The notes beneath the pieces are model-generated. The model had not been told where the DNA came from, made no database searches, and saw nothing but the letters and a program-made list of their open reading frames with translations. A stretch of 64,000 nucleotides of DNA, from positions 1 through 64,000 of the IMG/VR virus record IMGVR_UViG_3300028797_000104; one strand, given 5' to 3'. Shown here piece by piece: positions 3,101-58,212 of the stretch. Positions within the stretch are counted from its first letter, which is position 1, and each line of letters starts with the position of its first letter. This stretch comes from a virus (Duplodnaviria > Caudoviricetes). Made by a program: the position numbers and the translations under genes.

Positions 3101-5414
3101 AGGAATTTAAACAATTATTAGATACAATAGACATTAATGAATTTTATGAATATTATCTTACTCACGCAAAAAAATATACTGCTATTAAATATAATATAAC
3201 GGAATCTAAAGTAGGATAGATTTTAGACCATTATAATTTAAAGCATTTAACCGCGTAGCAAGCATTAAATAATATTTATATTATTGAATATGGATCTATT
3301 GAGAATGGTAGACAAATTACTCATGGATCTACTATAAATAAGTTAAATTCAGAAGAATCTAAATAGAAACGAATTAATACGTGCATTGAAAAATATGGTG
3401 GACCTTCTCCTTTTTCCTCAAAAGAAATTTAGGATAAACGTAATAAAACGGTTCAGGATAAATATGGAGTATCTAATGTATCAAAATTAGATACGGTTAA
3501 AAATAAAATTAAATTAACGCATGAATCGCGCTATGGTGGAATTGGATGGGCAAGTGATAGTGGAATGACTAAATATAAAGAAACCCTTATGGAAAAATAT
3601 GGGGTTGAATATGCTTGCCAATTACCTCAATGTATAAATGCAAATCATGGATGTAATTCTGGACCTAATACTAACTTCGAGAATTTATGTAATGATAATA
3701 ATTTAATTATTGATAATAAAGAATTTGTTATTAATAATTTTCGATATGATTTTAAAATTGGAAATGTTTTAATAGAAATTAATCCGTCTTATTCCCATAA
3801 TTCAACTTTTGGATTTAAAAATACCGTTGATCCTTTAAATAAAGATTATCATTATAATAAATCTAAAATTGCTATTAATAATGGCTATAGATGTATTCAT
3901 GTATGGGATTGGGATGATCCATACAAAATAATTCAGTTATTAAAATCTAAAGAAAAAATATTTGCAAGAAAATGCCAAATAAAAGAAGTACCAAAAGAAG
4001 AAACCATTTATTTTATAAATAAATATCATTTATAGAATTATATTAAAGATGATATTAGAATTGGTTTATATTATGAAAACGAACTTATTTCTATAATGAC
4101 TTTCGGAAAACCAAGATATAATAAAAAGCACCAATATGAACTTCTTAGATATTGTTCATCAAAAAATATAATTGGAGGAGCGGAAAAATTATTTTCTTAT
4201 TTTATAGAAAAATATAACCCCGATTCAATTATCAGTTACTGCGATAAAAGTAAGTTCATAGGTAATGTTTATAAAAAACTTAATTTTATTAGTCAAGGTG
4301 AACCAAGACCCACAAGACACTGGTACAATATAAAAACAAAAAAACATATAACTGATAATCTTTTAAGACAAAGAGGATTTGATTAGTTATTTGGTACTAA
4401 TTATGGTAAAGGTACTAATAATGAATAGCTAATGTTAGAAAATGGGTTTATAGAAATATATGATTGTGGTCAAGAAACTTTTATTTGGAAAAATATATGA
4501 ATTTTTCTGTATAGCCTGGCTATACAGTGATGTATAGAATAATAAATGACTCTAATTGCTGGGAAGTCTTTAGAGCTTTAACTACTACAACATAGATTGA
4601 AAAGTCAAATGTGAAAGTTTAAAAAAGTTAAAGATTAGATAATCAGCAGCTAAGTTCCTAAAAATAATAAATTTAAGGAAAAAGTTCAACGACTATTCCT
4701 CCCAAAGAGGAAGTAGGTTCTAAGTAGAATCGAAACGGGTCACGTCTTATTAAAGACGAAGATATAGTCTGTACACATATGAAAGTATGTGCTTGGATAT
4801 TCCAAGATATAAAAGTAACGATTTTATATAAACATAATAGACACTTGGAGCGCTGAAAGTTTATGTATCTCCTGCTATGGCAGCTGGTAGATATATCATT
4901 GGCGTCAATGGTGACGATATGATGAGCTCCGTTAAACAATTAGCGGCATAAATAAGAAATTGTTTATGAAAACCTCGTGAACTCATGGAAAATCTTAATA
5001 TTTAAGGGCATAATATTAAGACAATCATGATCTAAGACTTAATAAAATTAAAGAAAGATGATATAAATTTATTAAGTAAAGAGCAACGACTATCGAAAGA
5101 CTTATCAAAAAGAAATATTTTGAATAAGAATCAAGTAGAGTAGATTTCAAGTGAAATCGAAGTGCGAGGAACCTTTAAAAGGATAAAACAATTAAAGGTT
5201 ATGATATAGTCTGAACTCCATAGTGATATGGAGAGAATAAATGGAAACGATTTATTTGTAACATAATTGAGCAGTGTATGCCCCGTACATGGCGATAGTC
5301 CCGACTCAGCTTCTCCAATATGCAGATGGTGGAACTAGCTAGGGATGGAGCACCCTTTACGATCTAAAGGTGCTTAATGCCGATCTGGTGGTAGCTGGAG
5401 AAATTGTAGCATAA
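132..5414 (+). CDS. Major capsid protein (T4 gp23-like), 5'-partial, spliced; exons 132-182, 513-1043, 2129-2220, 2606-2795, 4841-4932, 5270-5414
   Basis: Joining the exons at U.G-defined 5' sites and terminal-G 3' sites gives one frame: IANDLVIVHPMTSMSGY|ITYIEY...IARARRIAVYYS...LAEKAVGQLSY|EIDTEVVELL...PVGV|SKQEH...TKRFSPNYMVCASN...YFAG|TLGALKVYVSP...SSV|AVYAPYM...STLYDL. This matches gp23-family motifs (vQPM, LaxEI..EInrE, GtL..rykVY, YaPY). Needs TAG=Gln. Confidence 0.92.
183..512 (+). mobile_element. Group I intron 2 of the capsid gene (no ORF)
   Basis: P1 GGAUAU/GUAUCC with U.G at the splice site; core elements AATTGCTGGAAA, AATCAGCAG, GTTCAGAGACTA, GATATAGTCC; ends in G512. Confidence 0.9.
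1192..1280 (+). promoter_or_regulatory. Structured RNA leader with SD-pairing loop, copy 1
   Basis: Outer stem AAUGUAG/CUACAUU, two inner hairpins, and loop CUCCAAU complementary to AUUGGAG (SD, 1274-1280). A covarying copy lies at 2830-2913. Confidence 0.6.
1288..1962 (+). CDS. GIY-YIG homing endonuclease with NUMOD3 repeats
   Basis: MYGYIYKTT...KIYIG(TAG=Q)H...YLGSG...E.YWI...GYNI, followed by GHKHSKETKRKMS and GMYGKKHS repeats; in frame with track ORF 1465-1962. Confidence 0.9.
2221..2605 (+). mobile_element. Group I intron 4 of the capsid gene (no ORF)
   Basis: P1 GUUGGCGU/GCGCCAAC; core AATTGCTGGGAA, AATCAGCAG, GTTCAACGACTA, GATATAGTCTG; splicing rebuilds the Val codon GT|A. Confidence 0.9.
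2830..2913 (+). promoter_or_regulatory. Structured RNA leader with SD-pairing loop, copy 2
   Basis: Outer stem UGAUAG/CUAUCA, inner hairpins AGCAG/CUGUU and CAAUA/UAUUG, and loop CCUUGC complementary to GCAAGG(AG) at the SD. Confidence 0.6.
2923..4500 (+). CDS. Intron-encoded homing endonuclease (KYG repeats, Vsr/DUF559-like PD-(D/E)xK domain, Hef-like C-terminal domain)
   Basis: One frame with TAG=Q. EKYGGPSPF, DKYGVSNVS and EKYGVEYA repeats; RYDFKIGNVLIEIN; NGYRCIHVWDWD; MTFGKPRYNK..YELLRYCS..IIGGAEKLF. Confidence 0.8.
4933..5269 (+). mobile_element. Group I intron 6 of the capsid gene (no ORF)
   Basis: P1 CCGU/GCGG; core GAACTCATGGAAA, AATCATGA, GAGCAACGACTA, GATATAGTCTG; splicing rebuilds the Val codon GT|A. 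Confidence 0.9.
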
Positions 5415-46635: not shown

Positions 46636-48558
46636 ATGTCTTTATGGGGAACTGAATTTGATATAGCACCAAAAGAAAATAAAAAGAAAATTCTTGATAA
46701 GATTAGTAAACCAAAAAAAGTAGTATCGGAAAATAGTGTAAAAACAAAATAGACAAAAAAAGATAAAGAAGTAGATCCATATTCTTTTATTCCATCTATT
46801 GAAGAAGAAGTATATAGAATATTAGGTAAATATAAAGATAATACTTTAGTAATTCGAGATTTAGAAACATTTAAAAATTATTTTTCTATTGCAATCAAGA
46901 ATGGATCCATAGCAGTAGATACAGAAACAAATAACAGTCTAGATCCAATAACTTGTAAATTGATGGGATTATGTATTTATACACCATCAATGAAACAAGC
47001 ATATATTCCAGTAAATCATGTAGATAAAGAAGGTAATTTATTAGATAATCAAATTACGGAAGAATAGATTAAAGAGTAGCTTTTACGTTTGATTTAGAAT
47101 AATGTAAAAGTTATTATGCATAACGGCAAGTTTGATTATCAGGTTTTGAAATGCACTTGCGATATTGAATTAGTTCCATATTGGGATACAATGATTGCAG
47201 CAAAAATTTTAGATGAAAATGAATTAAGAGCTTCATTAAAAGAACAATATATAGATAAAATAGATTCAAGTCAAGAAAAATATGATATTGAGCATTTATT
47301 TGAAGGATTACCTTATGCAATTTTTAATCCCGAATTATTTGCATTATATGCAGCAACAGATTCTAAGATGACGTATGATTTATATGAATGGCAATTAAAA
47401 CAGTATATGCTTCCAGATAATAGTAAATTATTAAATCTTTTATTAAATGTGGAAATGCCTGTTGTTCAAGTGGCAGCAGAAATGGAATTGACTGGTATTT
47501 GTATTGATTAGGAATATGCAAAAAGATTAAGTAAAAAATATCATGATATTGCAAATGGTGTAGATAAGCAAATCGAAATCGAATTAAGAAAGTATGATGA
47601 TTAGATAGCAAAGTGGAGATTAACAGAAGAGGCTAATGCTAAACCATTATCTAAAAAACCAAATAAAAATGGTGAATATACTTATTAGAAATCTAAAAAT
47701 GAACAATTATAGAATCCTATCTAGATAACCAGTCCAACTTAGTTAGCAATACTTTTATATGATATATTAAAAGTAGGTTTAATTGATAAAAAAACTCCAA
47801 GAGGAACAGGAGAAGAAATTTTACAAAAAATTAAGCTCCCTATATGTGATTTAATTTTAGAAAAAAGAGGATTAGAAAAATTAATAGGAACATATATTGA
47901 TAAATTGCCAACATGCGTAAGTGAAAAAGATAATAGACTTCATGCACATTTTAACTAGTTAGGAGCAGGTACAGGAAGATTTAGTAGTAGTGATCCCAAC
48001 CTTTAATTAATGGAGGCATATATTCGTGAGAGTATATGAAAATCGCGTGAATTCAATGAATAGAGGTAACATAAATTCTTAACATTGAGCCAAGCTTATT
48101 AGAAATTAATAAGAAGGTGCAACGACTAGGGAATGAGAGTTAATATCGATAATTTCCCCACGAGCGCGCGATAACTCATTTATATAAAAAATATCTTATT
48201 AATTTAAAAATAATAGATAAATGAGTTAATGATATAGTCTGAACTACATTGAGAGTTACGTAGATGTAGAAGTTAAGATAAAGAGCTTAACGATAACATA
48301 ATGCAAAATATCCCGTCCCATAATAAGGAAATTAGATTATTATTTAAAGCAGGTTATACAAATTACGAAATTGAAACTTTAATGGATAGATTTGATATTA
48401 ATGAGGATGATGAAATCGAAACAAGTAATGGTTGGATTCTCGCATCAGAATTAAAAGTTAATAATAGTTATCAATTGGATAAAGATATTATTAAAATAGT
48501 TGATTTAATTAAAAATGGTAATATAATTACAGTTATATATTAGAGAGAAGGTGATTAA
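46636..48558 (+). CDS. polA: DNA polymerase A, N-terminal piece (exons 46636-48003 and 48304-48558)
   Basis: Exonuclease motifs AVDTET, HNGKFD and YAATD; TGRFSSSDPNL|QNIP across the intron; ends in a Hint-like appendage. Confidence 0.88.
48004..48303 (+). mobile_element. Group I intron in polA (no ORF)
   Basis: P1 CCUU/GAGG; core GTGCAACGACTA and GATATAGTCTG; ends in G; restores PNL|QNIP. Confidence 0.9.
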
Positions 48559-48559
48559 A

Positions 48560-49649
48560 ATGAAAGTTCGCGTTCGAAAACCAAATATTCTCGTTGGAGC
48601 GGACTTTTCTTAAATCACAATAGGAACCAAGGTTATTATGCCAATACAGTCAGGATAAAAATATGACGGATGCATATATGCAAGGAAAAGATTTATATGC
48701 AACTATTGCATCCGGAGTATATAAAAATAATTATTGGGATAATATGGAACATAGAGAAGATGGTACTCCAAATCCTGAAGGTAAGAAAAGACGAAGTAAT
48801 TGTAAGTCACTTTTGCTTGGAATTATCTACGGAAGAGGAGCAAATTCTATAGCTGAATAGATTGGTACAGATTTAGCAGGTGCTCAAAAAATTATCGATG
48901 ATTTTTATAATGGATTTCCAAAAGTAAAAGAATGGACTGATAAAACAGAAGCAGATGCTAAATAGAATGGATATGTGGAAGATCTATGGGGTCGCAGAAG
49001 AAGATTACCAGATATTCAACTTCCAAAATATACAATTAAAACTGATAATGAATCTTCCGATTTTAATCCTCTTTTATATTCAATGGGTAAATATTCATCG
49101 GAAAATTCTAAAATAATAAATGAATATAAGAAAAAATTAGAATCAATTAAATCTAGAAAAGATTATAATATCATTAAGGAAGAAGCAGAAAAAAATCATG
49201 TGCATATAACAGATAATGGTGGATTCATTGCATAGGCTCAAAGACAATGTGTAAATGCAAGAATTCAAGGAGGGGCAGCCTCTATGTCTAAACTTGCCAT
49301 GAGAAAAGTTTTTGATAATCAAGAATTAAGAGATTTAGGATTTAAGATTCTATTACAAATTCATGATGAATTAATTGGAGAATGTCCAAAAGAAAATGCC
49401 GATAAGGTAGCAGAAATCTTAACGTCGGTAATGAAAGAAAGTGCAAAACCAGTAGTTCAAGTTCCATTTAAATGCGATGCTACTATAGAAACACATTGGT
49501 ACGAATCCGATTATTCTGATGTTTTAAATAATGAATATTAGAAATTATTAAAAACAAAAAACGAAAAAGATGCATTTAATGATATTTATAATGAACATCA
49601 AGAATTAACTGAAAATCAATTGAAAAAGATTTTAAATATAGTTGATTAA
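48560..49649 (+). CDS. polA: DNA polymerase A, C-terminal piece, with a 7-nt discontinuity in motif A
   Basis: MKVRVRKPNILVGADFS, then TAAATCA, then QQEPR...KSLLLGIIYG...NARIQG...QIHDE. Confidence 0.82.
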
Positions 49650-49670
49650 AGAAAAAATTTGTTGTATACT
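49642..49670 (+). promoter_or_regulatory. Sigma70-type promoter of the que/dpd operon
   Basis: TTGATT-N17-TATACT, preceded by TAG. Confidence 0.6.
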
Positions 49671-49675
49671 ATAAT

Positions 49676-49721
49676 AGTGAGGCAATGCGACAACCCTCAC
49701 TCTAATAAAAAAACTAAGGAG
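49676..49721 (+). promoter_or_regulatory. preQ1-I riboswitch-like leader with a variant loop
   Basis: Stem AGUGAGG/CCUCACU, 12-nt loop, and A-rich tail AUAAAAAAACUAA running into the SD; upstream of yhhQ-queC. Confidence 0.65.
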
Positions 49722-49732
49722 ATTTATTTATT

Positions 49733-50419
49733 ATGCCTAATGAAATTATTTTTATTATTGAATTGGTAGTATGTTTTTTAGCCTTAACCCTAATTAATAA
49801 ATTCTTAAATAAAGAGGGTCTTATTGCATGGATTGCAATTGCTTCTATTTTGGCAAATGTAATGACAGCAAAGACTTCGGATTTATTTGGAATTAGTTAT
49901 ACTTTAGGAACTATTCTATTTGCATCTACATTTTTAGCTACGGATATGATTACAGAAAGATTTGGTAAGGAAGATGCAAAAAAGGGCGTAATTATTGGAA
50001 TGGTTGGAACTCTTTCTTTTATCGTAGCCAGTCAAATTTGTCTTTGGTATAAACCAACTGATTTTGATTATGCAAATCCTTCGATGCAAACTCTATTTTC
50101 TCTGAATCTTAGAATCAGTATTTCTAGCGTAATTATGTATTTTATTGCTAATATGGTAGATGTTTATATTTATGATGCTCTTAAGAAGAAAATGAATAAT
50201 AAACATATGTGGCTTAGAAATAACGTAGCAACTATTATCTGTAATACTTTAGAAAACTTTTTCTTTATGTTTGGAGCCTTTTTTGGTATTTATGATAATA
50301 AAACTATTTTAATGATGGCTATTACCACTAGCTTAGTGGAAATCGTAGTTGGTTTGTGTGATACTCCTTTCCTTTATCTTTCAACTAAACTAACTAAGAA
50401 GGAGACTATTAATGAGTAA
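49733..50419 (+). CDS. yhhQ: Queuosine precursor transporter (YhhQ/DUF165)
   Basis: Hydrophobic protein; ILANVMTAK, FLATDMITERFG, MWLRNNVAT and DTPFLY. Confidence 0.9.
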   Translation: MPNEIIFIIELVVCFLALTLINKFLNKEGLIAWIAIASILANVMTAKTSDLFGISYTLGTILFASTFLATDMITERFGKEDAKKGVIIGMVGTLSFIVASQICLWYKPTDFDYANPSMQTLFSLNLRISISSVIMYFIANMVDVYIYDALKKKMNNKHMWLRNNVATIICNTLENFFFMFGAFFGIYDNKTILMMAITTSLVEIVVGLCDTPFLYLSTKLTKKETINE

Positions 50420-51113
50420 AGCATTTGTATTAAGTAGTGGTGGTCTTGATAGTACTACCTGTTTAGCTATGGCTATTGAAAAATATGGAGTAGAAAATGT
50501 AGTTACAGCATCTCTTTATTATGGACAAAAACACGATAAGGAATTGAAATGTGCTTAGGCTGTAGCTGATTATTATGGTGTTAGACATATTGAGGAAGAT
50601 ATATCTAATGTAATGAAATATGCAAGTGATGTATGTACTCTGGTTAAGGGTGGAAAAAACATTGAACATGCTTCATATGAAGAGCAAATTAAACATACTA
50701 GTAATGGTAGAGTTGCAACTTATGTGCCTTTCAGAAATGGTTTATTTTTAAGTATTGCTGCCGCATATGCTGATAGTATTTTTCCTAATGAAAAAGTAGA
50801 AATTTACTATGGAGCTCATGCAGATGATGCAGCAGGAAATGCTTATGCTGATTGTACACCAGAGTTTGCAGAAGCTATGAATCATGCAATTTCATTAGGA
50901 ACCTATGGAAATATTACGGTATGTAGACCTTTAATTAATTGGAATAAAGCTCAAGTAGTTAAAGAAGGTCTTAGATTAAAGGTACCATATGAACTTACTT
51001 GGAGTTGTTATGAAGGTGGAGATAAACAGTGTGGGACCTGTGGTACCTGCATTGATAGAAAAAAAGCATTTTTAGAAAATGGGGTAATTGATCCCGTCCC
51101 ATATGAGGTATAA
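50412..51113 (+). CDS. queC: 7-cyano-7-deazaguanine synthase
   Basis: SSGGLDS, YGQKH, TYVPFRNG and TWSCY...CGTCGTC. Confidence 0.95.
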
Positions 51114-51115
51114 TA

Positions 51116-51562
51116 ATGTATCAAATTGAAACAACTATTTCTTTTGAAGCTGCTCATAGATTATATGGAATTGATACTTATTCAAAAGAATGTTCTGATT
51201 CCATACATGGTCATAGTTATAAAGTAACTGTTTATTTAAGTAGATCAGAAATAACTACCTCTGGAATGGTCATTGATTTTAAATACCTTAAGAAGATCAT
51301 TAAAGAAACTATAGAAAATAAATATGATCATTCATTGATTCTTAGGGATATTGATCCATTGGTATCAGTTATTCAAACTCTTGCTCCAGAACAAAAATTA
51401 AATGTAGTTTCTGATAGCCCTACCGCTGAATGGATGGCTATGACTTTTTATTATGAACTATTTCATAAAATTAAAGAGATAGATGAATGGGTAGATATTG
51501 TAATGGTATCTGTACAAGAAACCGAAAATAATATTGCTACCTATTTTGAAGGAGAATATTGA
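51116..51562 (+). CDS. queD: 6-carboxytetrahydropterin synthase
   Basis: FEAAHRL, C..IHGHSY, GMVIDF and PTAE. Confidence 0.93.
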   Translation: MYQIETTISFEAAHRLYGIDTYSKECSDSIHGHSYKVTVYLSRSEITTSGMVIDFKYLKKIIKETIENKYDHSLILRDIDPLVSVIQTLAPEQKLNVVSDSPTAEWMAMTFYYELFHKIKEIDEWVDIVMVSVQETENNIATYFEGEY

Positions 51563-52272
51563 TGATTCCAGTAGCCGAAATATTTGGTCCAACTATTTAG
51601 GGAGAAGGACCGGATGTAGGATTAAAGAGTATTTTTGTAAGAGTAGCTGGATGCGATTTTGCTTGTTCTTGGTGCGATAGTAAATTTGCTTGGAACGTTA
51701 AAAATGCGGTTAAATATGAAGAATAGCAATTACTCGATCTTCTTTTAAATAAATGTAAAGAAACAAATTGCAATTCGGTAATTTTAACTGGAGGAAATCC
51801 TTGTTTATATACTTTTGGTAAAATAGTATATAATTTATCTCTTTCTAATATTTAGGTTGGAGTTGAGACGTAGGGTAGTTATTTTCCTGAATGGCTTGAA
51901 TATATAACTACTTTAGTCCTTAGTCCTAAGGCTCCTTCTAGTGGGCAGCCCGACGTAATGAATAACATTAAAAATTATATCTATTCCAGTTCTTTGCCTC
52001 CCATGATCGCTTTAAAGATTCCAGTTTTTAATGATGAAGATTTCAATTTTGCGTAGAAATATTATGATAAATTTTAGGATTGTTTAAGTCCTTCTTTTAG
52101 ATTTTATTTAAGCGTAGGAAATGATGATACTAAAGAAGATGGAGATATTTCTAAAAGAATTTTAAAGTCTTATGAATGGTTAATTAATAAAGTTGCTGAA
52201 TCTTCTATGAATAAAGTTTATGTTCTTCCTCAAATTCATACATTAGTTTGGGGAAATAAATAGGGAGTATAA
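51562..52272 (+). CDS. queE: 7-carboxy-7-deazaguanine synthase (radical SAM)
   Basis: EIFGPTI(TAG=Q)[28 protein letters not shown] and PQIH. Confidence 0.93.
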
Positions 52273-52273
52273 A

Positions 52274-52879
52274 ATGTTTAATGAAAAGAAATGTGAAAAA
52301 GCAATAAAATTACTTTTAGAATCTTTTGGGGAAGATGTTAATAGAGCTGGATTAATTGAAACTCCAAGAAGAGTTGTAGGATACTGGAAAGAATTACTTG
52401 AAGGTACTCAATATACTAATTTATAGATTGCTAATAAATTCAATAAGAATTTTGAAGTTGGATATGATCCTATTGTAACTATTTACTAGGATGGTATTTT
52501 TAGTCATTGTGAACATCATTTAGCTTTAATGTATGATGGTTCTGCAATAATTGGATACATTCCAATTAAAAATGAGGATGATACATATAAAGTTCTTGGT
52601 TTAAGTAAAATTTATCGTATTGTAGATTTATGTGCAAAAAGGTTGCAACTTCAAGAAAAATTGGCATCAGATATTGCAGAATGTATTTCTTTAGCAACTG
52701 GATCTACATAGGTTTACGTTAATTTAAATATGAAACATGGTTGTGTTAGTGCTCGAGGAATTAAATCTTCTGGATGTACCAACGTTACTTTTATGACGAA
52801 AGAGTTAAGAAAAAATATTGGCGCAAGAGAAGAATTTGAAAAGAAAGCCATGGAACTTATATTGAGGAATCAAAAATGA
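52274..52879 (+). CDS. folE: GTP cyclohydrolase I
   Basis: ETPRRV, SHCEHH, GLSKIYR, RLQLQE and HGCVSARG. Confidence 0.93.
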
Positions 52880-53553
52880 AAATTTTAGTGATTACTTCAT
52901 GTACCGCAAAAAAGAAATATGAATATACCGATAAAACAATATGCCCCGCGATAGAAATGTATCAAGGGGCATAGCATCTATTAATTAAAGAAGGATATTT
53001 AAATTATTTAAAATCTTATGATAATTTAGATATGATTATTATTTCGGCAGGTTATGGAGTTATTAAACCTAATACCCCTATTCATTCATATAATACTTCT
53101 TTTAACGATATGAATGAAACGGAAATTAAAAATCATAGCATAAATCTTCATATTACAGAAGATTTAAATAAAATTTTGCCGGAATATGATATTATATTTT
53201 TATGCTTAGGATTAAATTATTTAAAAAGTATAGATTTTTCTAAATTAGATATTTCGCAAAATTAGAAATTTTTTATTTTTTCTAGTTTTGATAATTATAA
53301 ATAGTTGACTTATTTACGATCATATCATATAATTAATTCGGGAAAACAGGAAGCAATTGATTATTCTTATGGTATTATAGGGTTAAAAGGATACTTATTT
53401 AAGCTTCTTTGTAATGAATTCGTTAAGGATAAGGATTTATTAAATTCATTATATCGAAATCCAGAATTAGTAGACGATATATTAGAAAAATATAAAGGAA
53501 TCCGAAAGAATTACCAAAATCCATTAGGATATAAAAAAATAGAATTATTTTAA
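52876..53553 (+). CDS. DUF6884/YaaA-like protein in the deazaguanine cluster
   Basis: ITSCTAKK, PAIEMYQG and IISAGYG motifs. Confidence 0.7.
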
Positions 53554-53565
53554 GGAGAATAGCTA

Positions 53566-53904
53566 ATGTATTCAGAATATAGTTTTCCGAATAAATATGG
53601 AATTAGTAAAATTACTTTAACTAAAAAGATTCATTGTTATTGTAGGTTAGGTGGAGATTGGTATACTAATCAACTAGAGATTAGTTTTAAACCTGGAGCT
53701 GAAATTCCAGATTATGTATATTTGGATAAAGCTATTGAAGAAAGATGTGAAAAGCAAAATTTAATTATCGAAGAAGTAATTAATAATATTTCAAATATTA
53801 TTTTGGAACAATGTCCTTCTGCTACCAATCTTCATATTACTTCTTATGTAGATGATAGTGTTCCTAAGAACATGTTCGTAAAGGTAGAAAAATATGAACT
53901 TTGA
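53566..53904 (+). CDS. QueF-like T-fold protein
   Basis: CYCRLGGD..TNQLEISFKP...IIEE pattern, size and context. Confidence 0.6.
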   Translation: MYSEYSFPNKYGISKITLTKKIHCYCRLGGDWYTNQLEISFKPGAEIPDYVYLDKAIEERCEKQNLIIEEVINNISNIILEQCPSATNLHITSYVDDSVPKNMFVKVEKYEL

Positions 53905-54823
53905 TTTTTATTTTACTGGAATATCTTTGGATGAAGAATTCGAATTTCTTTTAGATAATAATGGATGCGTACTATTATCTTAGTTAAATCAAAGAAAAGA
54001 TATATTAACTTGGATAGATAAAATTAAAAGTAAAAATGTAAAATGTAAATTATTTATTGATAGTGGAGCCTTTAGTGCTTGGACTAAAGGAGTCTCTATC
54101 AATGTAGATGACTATATTAATTTTATTAATCAGTATTAGGAATATTTTACTGTGTATGCTTCTGTAGATAATATTCCAGGAGAACCAAAAGCATCGAATA
54201 CCGCTACACAAAAAGAAGTGGATGAATCCGCAGATAAAACTTGGTAGAATTTTTTATATATGAGATCTAAAGTAAATAATCCAGATAAATTGCTTTGTAC
54301 TTTTCATTGCGGAGAATCTTTTGATCATTTAATTAATATTTTAGAGTATTCAGATGAACATGGTCCAATTAAATACCTTGGTTTAGGTGGTATGGTTGGT
54401 AAATCTGATTTTGTTCTAAAAGGATTTTTAATGAAATGTTTTGATATTATTTCTAAAAGTTCTAATCCTAATATTAAAGTTCATGCTTTTGGAATGACTA
54501 AATATGATTATTTAAATCAATTTTATTTTACTTCAACTGATTCGACTACTTGGTTAATGACTGCTTCCTATGGTAATATTATTATTGATACTAAACCCGT
54601 ATATATTAGCGATCATGGATTACTCGACAATGATAATATTATAAATAAAAATTCTGCTATAAAAATGGAATTTGAAAATAAATTAAAAAAATATGGTTAT
54701 ACTTTAGATGAGTTGGTTGGAGATTATAAAAAAAGAAGATTATTTAATCTAAAAAGTTTATGGGAATGGGCAAATCAATATAATCCACCTAAAAAGATTG
54801 GAACAAAAATAGAATTATTTTAA
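53894..54823 (+). CDS. dpdA: DNA-guanine transglycosylase (DpdA/TGT family)
   Basis: LFIDSGAFS, SVDNIPG, GLGGMV, KVHAFG and STDSTTW; ends the que operon. Confidence 0.8.
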
Positions 54824-54840
54824 GATAAAAGGAGATACTT

Positions 54841-55959
54841 ATGATTTTAAAGGTAGAAGATTTAAAGAATTTAGCTTAGACTATTCTTCCTGCAGTAGAA
54901 TCGACTGATCTAACTGCCTTGCCAGAAACATTGGAATTAGTTGCTAAAAACGGTATTCTTAATTTTAGCGTTACTAATAAAGAATATCTTCTTGATGTTG
55001 CAATGACTATTGATTATGAAGAAGATTTTGAAGCAACTGTAAATGCTACTTTATTTTTAAAATTAATTTCATCTACAACTACGGATACAGTAGAAATTAA
55101 TGTAAAAGATAATTTTTTAATTATTAAAGGAAATGGATCTTATAAATTACCTTTAATTTTTGAAAATAATACCTTATTTAAAATTCCTAGAATTAATATT
55201 GAAAGTATTGATACTGAATTTGATATTGAAGGAGATATTTTATTTAGTATATTGAAATATAATACTAGGTAGCTATCTACTGGTATTCTTTCGCGACCAG
55301 TTCAAAAAATGTATTATATGGATGAAAAAGGAGCCATTACTTTTACTTCAGGAGCTTGTGTAAATAAATTTGATCTTCCTTCTAAAGTTAAACTTTTATT
55401 TAATCAAAGATTGGTTAAATTATTTAAATTATTTAAAGGAGTAAAAACTCATTTAGTTATTGGAAGTACTAAAATTAGCGAAGAGATTACTCAAACCAAA
55501 ATTAGATTCGAAGCAAATAATATTAAATTGACTGCTATTCTTTCTGGAGACGAAGGAATGATTAAATCCATTCCAGCAGAAGCAATTAGAAATAGAGCGT
55601 ATAATCAATATATTTATTCAGTTAATGTTAATACTAATCAATTTAATGATGCTCTAAATAGAATTAAATTATTTGTAGGAGGAGCTAAACTTTTAATTCC
55701 ATATATTAAATTAACATTTAATTCTGATGGGATTATTGTTTCCGATATTGATTCTAAAAATATAGAAGTTATTAAATATAGTTCTGTTCCAAGTAATTTT
55801 ACCGATGATTATGTTTTAATTGTAGATTTAAATGAATTGCAAGCAGTATTGGATACTTGTACGGAATCCGATTTAACTTTTAATTTTGGAGATAAGCAAT
55901 GTTTAGTAATAAGTAGGGTATCCATTAAAAATATTATTCCGGAAGTAAGTATGGATTAA
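54841..55959 (+). CDS. dnaN: DNA polymerase III beta-type sliding clamp
   Basis: 372 aa with a three-domain clamp-like pattern; phage-encoded DnaX, HolA and HolB nearby. Confidence 0.75.
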
Positions 55960-56426
55960 TGGCAAAGAATAGAGGAAAGTAGTTTGAATCTAAATTTAAA
56001 GAAGATTTTTTAAAAACCGTTCCGAATTCAACTATTGATAGATTATATGATGTGGTTACTGGATATAAAGCAATAACTCAAGTAAGTGATTTTATAGGTT
56101 ATTCAAAACCTTGTATATTTTATTTAGAATGTAAATCTCATGGAGGAGCATCTATTCCATTTATTAATATCACTTAGTATGAAAAGTTATTACCAAAAGT
56201 TGGAATACCAGGAGTAAGATGTGGAATAATTTTATGGTTAACTGAAAAAGATAAGGTGTTTTATATTCCAGTAAGCACAATAAAGACAATGAAAGAAAAC
56301 GGAGAGAAGTCAGTAGGTATTAGATCTTTAAATGATTATAGAATCATTGAAATACCTTCAGTAAAGAAAAGAGCATTTTTAGATTCAGATTATTCAGTAT
56401 TATTAAATCTGGAGGATGGAGATTAA
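55959..56426 (+). CDS. recU: RecU-like Holliday junction resolvase
   Basis: NRGKQFE, SDFIG and LECKS. Confidence 0.8.
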
Positions 56427-56995
56427 TGAAAGCAACATTCTTAGATATATATGATAAAAAAGAAGTAAAAAATATACAAAATAATCTCGAAGAGAAAGCA
56501 GAATATTTTAATACTATTTGTGATGATATTGTAACAAAGTATGCAGGAGATCTTGATAATTTAATGAAGTGGATATATAGTGCAATTATTCAACCTGATA
56601 TTCCTGCAGATAGCGACGTATTAGAAAAGGCATTTCTTGAATTATCAAATTGTGTATATTTTACTTATGAGAATCTTGAGCATGTAGGAGTATTTGATGC
56701 ATTAAGTAAAGCAACATATAAAGAAGTTTATAATGATGCTTATACTAAAAATATAGAAAAAGACGGAGAAAAGCGAAATAAAAAGACCGTTGCTGAATTA
56801 ACTGCAATAGCAGAAACAGAATCAAAATATGAGAGCGTTTTAAACGATATATATTCAGCAGCATATACAATTATTAAAAATAAAATTTCAGCTGCTCAGA
56901 CAATGATTGCAACTCTTAGTAAAATTCTCTCAAAGAGAATGCAGGAAGATAATACAATGGGATCAACGAGACAAAGATTAGTCGAGGAGTATTAA
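56426..56995 (+). CDS. Helical protein, possibly a UvsY-like recombination mediator
   Basis: Intact helical ORF coupled to recA. The function is inferred. Confidence 0.5.
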   Translation: MKATFLDIYDKKEVKNIQNNLEEKAEYFNTICDDIVTKYAGDLDNLMKWIYSAIIQPDIPADSDVLEKAFLELSNCVYFTYENLEHVGVFDALSKATYKEVYNDAYTKNIEKDGEKRNKKTVAELTAIAETESKYESVLNDIYSAAYTIIKNKISAAQTMIATLSKILSKRMQEDNTMGSTRQRLVEEY

Positions 56996-58212
56996 TGGCA
57001 GATAGTTTAACTGATGTATTAAAAAAGATAAAGAAACAATACGGGGATTCGGTCGTTAAAGTTGGGGTAGATGCATTAGAATTGGATGGAGTATTATCTC
57101 TTGGATCTCCATCATTTGATTTTTGTGTTTATGGAGGAGTTCCAGAAGGACGAATCATCGAATTAAGTGGGTAGGAAGGCTCAGGTAAAACTACAACAGC
57201 ATTTTTAATTGCTGCTTCTTATCAACGCAAAGAATTAGAAAGACATCCAATAGGAGTTGAATGGACTGATAATACTGGAATTGTTAGAAAAGGTCCAAGA
57301 TCAATAATTCTTTTAGATAATGAAGGTACAGCAGATCCGGCATGGGCTATTAAGCTCGGTTATAATATGAATGAAGATGCAGATGTTCCAACTATAATTA
57401 TTAGACCAGAAGCTCAATCAGCAGAAGAAATTTTTGATATGGCTCTTGATATGTTAAAAACTGGAGAAGTTGGACTTCTGATTTTTGATAGTATAGCAAC
57501 ACTTGTTCCATAGCAAATTGCAGATGAATCTATGGAAAAGCAATAGATGGGTGGTATTGCAAAAGCATTAACAAGATTTGCAAATACTGCTATTGGATTA
57601 TTAAGAAAATATAAAGCTACATTAGTTGCAATTAATCAGGTTCGAGATAATATGACCGGTTATGGAGATGCATTAACTACTCCAGGCGGACGTTCATGGA
57701 AACATGCTTGTTCAATGCGATTAATGTTTAAGCGTGGAGAGTTTTTTGATGAAGATGGAAATACATTAACAAAATCAGCTCAATCTCCTGCGGGTCATGT
57801 AATTGAAGTTTATGTATTGAAAACTAAGGTTTGTAAATGGGATAGAAAACTTGGATATCTACATTTAAATTATACAAAAGGCGTAGATGTAATTCAGGAT
57901 ACTATTGATGTTGCAACACATCTTGGATTTATTGATAATTCTGTTTAGGGTTCATTCAAATTACTTGATCCCGATACAGGGGAATTAATCTGCGATGAAA
58001 ATGGAGATCCAATAAAAATTCGTGGTAAAAGAAATGTTGGCATTTATTTTAAAGATCATATGAGTATCTGGAGATAGATTTATGATAAATGCTATGAAAA
58101 ATTAAGTAGAAAAGAAGAAGATAATATAGTCAGTTTTGAACAAATGCTAAATATAAATCTCAATGAAAAATTAGGAATTGATATAGAAGAATCAAATTTG
58201 GAGGAACTATAA
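56995..58212 (+). CDS. recA: RecA/UvsX recombinase
   Basis: GGVPEGRIIELSGQEGSGKTT, IFDSIA, INQVR and TPGG. Confidence 0.95.

Follow-up and report, generated by a model that had tools for sequence, protein, structure and literature searches.

The element at 49676-49721 of the window, by which we mean the whole stretch of 64,000 nucleotides analysed here, is by the evidence of homology and covariation a genuine derivative of the preQ1-I riboswitch that was inherited within a phage family. What is specific to the window lineage, judged against its aligned relatives, is a variant of the ligand pocket in which the first loop uridine (U6) is replaced by CA. Tentatively, the element is best read as a working but retuned translational OFF switch for yhhQ, the first gene of a 7-deazaguanine operon.

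The element and its operon

The window is contained in a 151-kb IMG/VR virus record with a G+C content of 28%. When TAG was taken as a sense codon (Q), the number of open reading frames of at least 200 aa rose from 19 to 46, and a tRNA with the anticodon CUA was found at 92251-92324 of the genome, outside the window, in a cluster of 16 tRNAs. By these signs, TAG is a sense codon in this phage. With TAG = Q, tightly packed genes were obtained on the + strand, where DNA polymerase A ends at 49649 and is followed by an 83-nt leader, by yhhQ and by the rest of the operon (50412..54823, +):

49733..50419, + strand, yhhQ (Vut_1, preQ0/7-deazaguanine precursor transporter family; PF02592, E 2.3e-37)
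50412-51113, + strand, queC, whose start overlaps the end of yhhQ
51116-51562, + strand, queD
51559-52272, + strand, queE-like radical SAM gene
52220-52879, + strand, folE
52876-53553, + strand, gene for a DUF6884 protein
53566-53904, + strand, 112-aa open reading frame
53894-54823, + strand, DpdA/TGT-like gene, 309 aa (phrog_887, E 6.8e-44)

The DpdA/TGT-like gene is followed by a sliding clamp gene, and the 112-aa open reading frame at 53566-53904 had no Pfam match even at an E-value of 10. YhhQ is a salvage importer (PMC5372724, PMC6884629). Given the set of que, folE and DpdA-like genes, the phage by its gene content makes preQ0 and very probably inserts 7-deazaguanine into its own DNA.

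Several other properties of this region were recorded. The TAG codons of the operon include seven in queE and four in folE, and none are present in yhhQ and queD. DNA polymerase A is split here into open reading frames at 46636-48006 and 48594-49649, about 590 nt apart, and is one protein of 821-841 aa in the relatives. The stretch 49733-58212 has a gene order in common with Streptococcus phage Dp-1 (L132, 1-9859), comprising que genes, the transporter, the TGT-like protein, the clamp, a RecU-like protein and a recombinase. At the gathering threshold, Rfam gave only four matches in the window, all of them group I introns in its first 5.3 kb (173-479, 2189-2496, 4503-4791 and 4923-5233; 60-72 bits).

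The sequence-only reading had described a stem, a 12-nt loop with a terminal AC and a tail at the predicted transcript start, all of which are present in the sequence. The layout of the leader is as follows:

49642..49670, + strand, promoter-like TTGATT, 17-nt spacer and TATACT (9/12 consensus matches; a consensus match only)
49676..49682, + strand, P1 5' strand AGUGAGG (7-bp hairpin from RNAfold, family covariation); G49682, the putative pocket-floor G and G5 equivalent, closes P1 with C49695
49683-49694, + strand, loop CAAUGCGACAAC, 12 nt with AC at its end
49683..49684, + strand, CA instead of the first loop uridine (U6)
49685..49694, + strand, remainder of the loop AUGCGACAAC, with C49688 and A49690 as the putative P2 5' strand
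49695..49701, + strand, P1 3' strand CCUCACU (RNAfold, family covariation)
49702-49721, + strand, tail CUAAUAAAAAAACUAAGGAG
49702..49714, + strand, A-rich L3 CUAAUAAAAAAA and then the conserved tail C (C31 equivalent)
49715..49721, + strand, putative P2 3' strand and Shine-Dalgarno sequence UAAGGAG (from the alignment of 56 relatives)

Given the promoter-like site, transcription is predicted to start at about 49677, close to the first base of the stem, and a resembling TTGATT...TATAAT is found in the relatives L019 and L127. No terminator-like site was found downstream of the element in the yhhQ leader, so control would act on translation. P1 as a 7-bp hairpin is the minimum free energy structure in RNAfold, and its closure by a G-C pair is the feature that forms the pocket floor. 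The loop has AAC at its end, and its final base, C49694, is the specificity cytosine of the AC motif. A candidate partner for a triple is U49686, and the A-rich L3 has an adenine adjoining the pocket. The site CUAAGGAG is 11 nt upstream of the yhhQ start, with the AUG at 49733. A P2 pseudoknot between loop and tail, overlapping the Shine-Dalgarno sequence, could form by the pairs A49690-U49715 and C49688-G49718 (the first G of the Shine-Dalgarno sequence), as a short and partly non-canonical helix like those in the structures of T. tengcongensis and C. antarcticum (PMC11625349). The element is located, as known preQ1-I elements are, upstream of queuosine/7-deazaguanine genes. The U6 of preQ1-I elements is missing, with C49683 and A49684 in its place, and so is the type I signature of UU after P1 and UC before the P1 3' strand, where the window has CA... 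and ...AC.

Covariance-model evidence

In a sensitive scan of 241 nt, RF00522 (PreQ1) was the best Rfam match of the region (21.7 bits, E 0.021), with an alignment that covers the stem and the tail and skips the loop, and the same match was obtained at an E-value of 0.003 in a search of the whole 151-kb genome. Similarity to the Rfam PreQ1 model, on which the sequence-only reading had made its assignment depend, was thus found by cmsearch, but with a score under the gathering cut-off of 39 bits for RF00522. The assignment of a preQ1-I scaffold to the leader of a phage 7-deazaguanine operon is borne out by this best match together with the yhhQ-queC-queD-queE-folE-...-dpdA context. The Rfam scores of the relatives' elements ranged from 25 to 41.2 bits, with L026 and L069 above the gathering threshold, and given that these scores grade up past the threshold, the window element is part of a continuous family that reaches recognised preQ1-I. 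With a covariance model built from the relatives only, the window element ranked first in the 64-kb window (24.4 bits, E 3.8e-4), and weak matches of 15-16 bits were seen elsewhere in this AT-rich sequence at A-rich tails with AAGGAG.

A phage-borne family of elements

Hundreds of YhhQ homologues with 55-78% identity were found in metagenomes. Three sets of relatives were collected, consisting of Logan and ENA contigs (L019-L022 and L122-L128), 80 IMG/VR loci (L042-L121) and 80 MAG loci (L133-L212). By a search for a hairpin plus tail, elements resembling preQ1-I were identified immediately upstream of yhhQ in 68 phage loci, not counting the window, as well as in L127 and L128. The family element is carried by 65 of the about 80 IMG/VR loci, and the family model added 21 more elements before yhhQ in the MAG set.

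Loops typical of the family are UAUGCAAUAAC, UACGCAACAAC and UUCGCAAAAAC, none of which has UAG, and the RF00522 consensus loop UUCGuAAaCcUC is likewise without it, as are almost all elements of the related phages. The loops nearest to that of the window are UAUGCGACAAC (L080), UACGCGACAAC (L042) and UAUGCGAUAAC (L127), and the L127 loop sits in a stem, AGUGAGG, that is identical to the one in the window. The sequence-only reading was right that CAAUGCGACAAC lacks UAG, and it had regarded this as an anomaly of a rewritten loop. The comparison across related phages contradicts this: GCRA-type loops without UAG are the norm of the family, UAG is the mark of a B. subtilis-like subtype, the loops of L080 and L127 are nearly the same as the window loop, and C-G and A-U pairs with the tail covary instead. 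The pocket does deviate from the canonical one, as had been proposed, but the missing UAG is not the reason and the replacement of U6 by CA had been overlooked.

Covariation was examined in an alignment of 56 relatives, with 500 shuffles as control. For P1, 62 cells had changed on both sides compared with 19 in the shuffles, and none of the 500 shuffles reached as high a value. The G-C pair closing P1 is present in 53/56 relatives. The C at column 15 of the loop is paired with the initial G of GGAG (C15-G46) in 54/56 and the A at loop column 17 with the tail U (A17-U43) in 51/56, and at the latter pair a compensatory U-A was found at three loci (loop GCAU, tail CAAAGG). P2 in the family, as deduced from these columns, is the pairing of loop C/A with G/U of the tail CUAAGG. 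A long P1 (6-7 bp) and a long L3 (about 12 nt) occur together in L019, L127 and L126 and a short P1 with a short L3 elsewhere, so that the two lengths change together, as a pseudoknot would require. Two other pairing schemes were tried. A P2 register of the B. subtilis type, with G pairing to the tail C, was rejected because the neighbouring positions are unpairable in any family member, and alternative P1 registers that would place a U beside the stem were rejected because none of them pairs.

A chance hairpin beside an A-rich Shine-Dalgarno region, unrelated to preQ1-I, might also score under the Rfam gathering threshold, and an A-rich tail with AAGGAG does yield weak model matches elsewhere (15-16 bits), but this explanation is exceedingly improbable and is contradicted already by the same stem in L019 and L127, whose loops are canonical, and by the synteny of the element over about 90 loci, with covariation.

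The searches also delimited where such elements occur. Megablast and blastn gave no relatives of the region among isolate phages, and no PreQ1 match was found in the isolate phages with yhhQ/que genes that were scanned (Dp-1, CDKM15, phiFN37 and 'SA 1306 Kay'); thus, no isolate precedent was found. In IMG/VR, a peptide pattern from a single protein gave no matches, so that an alignment was needed to collect loci, and a pattern of the exact loop gave none either. A looser pattern (GCGACAACC...AAAAACTAA) matched 16 IMG/VR loci, all of which were stemless chance matches and were discarded.

Some related phages have other leaders before yhhQ. In L124 (1391-1506) and L125, with YhhQ proteins 72-73% identical, the riboswitch is absent and only a TTATAAT promoter and an AGGAGG site are present. 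A different conserved yhhQ leader was found in six phage contigs (L091:1420-1497, L094, L098, L099:632-709, L101 and L103), consisting of YCUCCCYGAAACUGCAAUG, a variable hairpin and then ACACAAAACGAAAAGGAG. Its outer helix CUCC/GGAG lies over the Shine-Dalgarno sequence and has one compensatory change, and the L091 leader, the sole one of the six scanned, had no Rfam match. This leader is a candidate for a separate regulatory RNA for yhhQ.

The sequence-only reading had also raised the capture of a host switch. Besides a near-identical phage contig, one MAG contains a Vut_1 gene of its own, which is preceded by a preQ1-I element resembling type I, with an intrinsic terminator (L213:1444-1560, G001:C71, - strand; loop UUCGAAACCAUC; 25.7 bits, below the Rfam cut-off). 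Given that this leader is of another subtype and has another expression platform, recent capture is argued against, and with the element inherited within a large phage family and the leader of the candidate host different, a captured switch is unlikely.

Replacement of the pocket uridine by CA

The base after the P1-closing G is U in about 100 other elements (the 68 phage loci together with L127 and L128, the 21 from the MAG set, and 14 bacterial PreQ1 matches found among 151 genomes that belong to the same class as the MAG holding the near-identical phage contig) and is CA in the window lineage only. In solved preQ1-I structures, U6 is the base that reads the ligand's N9-H, and it docks on an adenine of L3 (PMC11625349, PMC10622847). 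With U6C, the E. coli aptamer loses affinity for preQ1 about 35,000-fold and that of T. tengcongensis more than 134,000-fold, and in E. coli U7C (the same change in crystal numbering) abolished regulation in cells (PMC10622847). Pattern scans for other CA-type or non-U forms gave no matches in JGI metagenomes and none in IMG/VR, where a control pattern with the canonical U gave seven, and this indicated that non-U variants do not form a family. The carriers of the CA variant are three closely related strains only: the window, L122 and L133.

Conservation of the leader among three strains

L122 (Logan SRR34397660) and L133 (a yak-rumen contig binned as Acholeplasmatales) are independent assemblies. 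In the sequence surrounding the leader, 79/1824 sites in L122 and 70/1884 in L133 are different from those of the window (3.7-4.3%), and nearly all of these are third codon positions, about 10-11% of which have changed. The 83-nt leader has no differences among the three strains. With this region chosen a priori, the probability of no leader change for one pair is 0.024 if the block average rate applies and about 1.6e-4 if the third-position rate does, and the third strain pushes it lower still. A mismatch-free run of 145 nt was considered as strong evidence of selection and rejected as such, being an ordinary longest run for the 6.1-kb block (permutation, P = 0.34). Given that this run is ordinary and that conservation of the promoter and Shine-Dalgarno sequence is expected anyway, the case for the loop and L3 being constrained in their own right is modest (about 0.02 by estimate).

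Compared over 26 kb, the yak contig has about 87% identity to the window, but 95.6% in 48822-54922, which consists of the C-terminal region of polA and the que/dpdA module (compared with L234/L235, G001:C4). This module may be either more constrained or recently exchanged. Given that the genomes are only about 87% identical outside it, the CA form has persisted.

Proposed mechanism and alternative readings

We propose that the 5' leader of yhhQ, the first gene of an operon for preQ0 synthesis and DNA insertion, folds here into a small H-type pseudoknot. The A-rich L3 would lie in the minor groove of the 7-bp P1 hairpin, and the tail UAAG would form P2 with C49688 and A49690 of the loop. Filling of the pocket between P1 and P2 would hold the first bases of the GGAG ribosome-binding site in P2, and translation of yhhQ, and probably also of the overlapping queC, would be lowered. 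With U6 replaced by CA the pocket would be rebuilt and probably much weaker, with an RNA that may still sense a 7-deazaguanine base (preQ0/preQ1) and a raised switching threshold that would suit a phage flooding the cell with precursor. Homology, architecture, covariation, the U6 change and the conservation of the leader were observed; that a ligand is bound, how strongly, and in which direction control acts are inferred.

The retuned working sensor ranks first among the readings, ahead of a disabled switch and then of a changed ligand. Because the 83-nt leader is the same in three strains despite a synonymous divergence of about 10%, we lean towards a working sensor over a dead one, and the retention of the floor G-C, the specificity C, the L3 adenines and the tail C was counted for it as well. 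Against it stand the losses caused by U6C, the invariance of the U elsewhere and the fact that only three close strains carry the change. L124 and L125 have dropped the riboswitch, so that regulation is dispensable in this clade, and the promoter and Shine-Dalgarno sequence would be conserved regardless; both points count against a retuned sensor.

Loss of function is a real possibility, if a less probable one. The change from U to CA would then have ended ligand binding, yhhQ and the coupled queC would be made constitutively, and what is conserved would be only a promoter, a 5' stabilising hairpin and a ribosome-binding site. The loss of affinity by a factor of 10^4-10^5 with loss of regulation in vivo, the U present in all of the about 100 other elements, the relatives L124 and L125 that live without any riboswitch and the scans with no other non-U variants, hence no family of them, all favour this reading. 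However, after loss of function the loop and L3, which are 24 nt outside the stem, promoter and Shine-Dalgarno sequence, should drift, and about four changes would be expected in these 24 nt across the three strains at the synonymous rate, whereas none were seen (modest evidence, P of about 0.02).

A change of ligand is improbable. Without the uridine that reads N9-H and with a longer L1, the pocket could have been reshaped for another 7-deazapurine, such as the phage's modified base in an N9-substituted form, as nucleoside or nucleotide, or a different product of the pathway. The change falls exactly on a ligand-contacting base while the floor G-C, the specificity C, the L3 A and the tail C are kept, the leader is conserved in three strains, and pocket variants in other riboswitch classes bind new ligands (PMC11625349). 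This is weakened by its restriction to one narrow lineage with no independent recurrence in the scans, by the controlled gene, which is the same transporter as in the canonical relatives, and by candidate ligands that are proposed by analogy only. More broadly, it seems rather unlikely that the element is a pocket variant kept by selection in which the N9-H edge goes unread, with either another 7-deazapurine or the usual precursor at very high concentration as ligand. If true, this would be the first specificity or threshold variant of the preQ1-I class, borne by a TAG-recoded rumen phage.

Significance

Riboswitches were regarded as rare in phages (PMC5473149). Here a family of uncultured rumen and gut phages appears to have a preQ1-I-type switch before the importer of a base that is built into their DNA, and the Rfam threshold misses most copies of the family. 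The window lineage is a natural experiment, in which a uridine essential for binding in the laboratory was replaced and the leader nevertheless remained unchanged. Should the RNA have remained a sensor, it would be an example of how the smallest riboswitch pocket is retuned or put to a new use; should it sense nothing, it would be a clean case in which a phage has locked a host-style feedback loop in the open state.

Comparison with known preQ1-I types and other riboswitches

With type II elements (B. subtilis queC, T. tengcongensis; RF00522) the window element shares the H-type pseudoknot, the G-C pocket floor, the A-rich L3 and an AC before the P1 3' strand with C as the specificity base (PMC11625349). 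It also shares the position before a queuosine-precursor gene and, as in T. tengcongensis, a start of the Shine-Dalgarno sequence in P2 that is consistent with a translational OFF switch (PMC11625349). Unlike type II, it has no UAG/CUA helix of the B. subtilis kind, the P2 ceiling is A-U and not G-C, the tail C is unpaired, P1 has 7 bp, L3 has about 12 nt and CA stands for the first loop U.

Likenesses to type I (Carnobacterium antarcticum, PDB 8fb3) are the tail ...AAACUAAGG with its conserved C, the A-U ceiling pair, an L1 pyrimidine available for a triple and a loop core GC(A/G)A, as in the Rfam consensus. Type I differs in having UU after P1 and UC before the P1 3' strand, where the window has CA(A) and AC. 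The C. antarcticum element binds two stacked preQ1 and has the ceiling triple C8-A12-U32, and the corresponding triple in T. tengcongensis is C7-G11-C30 (PMC11625349); the P2 pairs of the phage family match these published ceilings. In its architecture, the family is thus a hybrid that combines the AC motif of types II and III with the tail C and A-U ceiling of type I.

In type III (the E. coli yhhQ leader, PDB 8fza; PMC10622847), a member of the yhhQ family is also controlled at translation and the AC motif is present, whereas the loop is short and pyrimidine-rich and the whole Shine-Dalgarno sequence is buried by Watson-Crick pairing (PMC11625349). Type III occurs almost exclusively in Pseudomonadota (PMC11625349). 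Outside the class, a parallel is offered by purine riboswitches with altered specificity (from guanine to 8-oxoguanine, among others), where exchange of a single pocket base in an aptamer that is otherwise intact is how new ligands are known to be acquired (PMC11625349). Those variants recur in many genomes and were assayed for binding, whereas the window variant is that of a single lineage.
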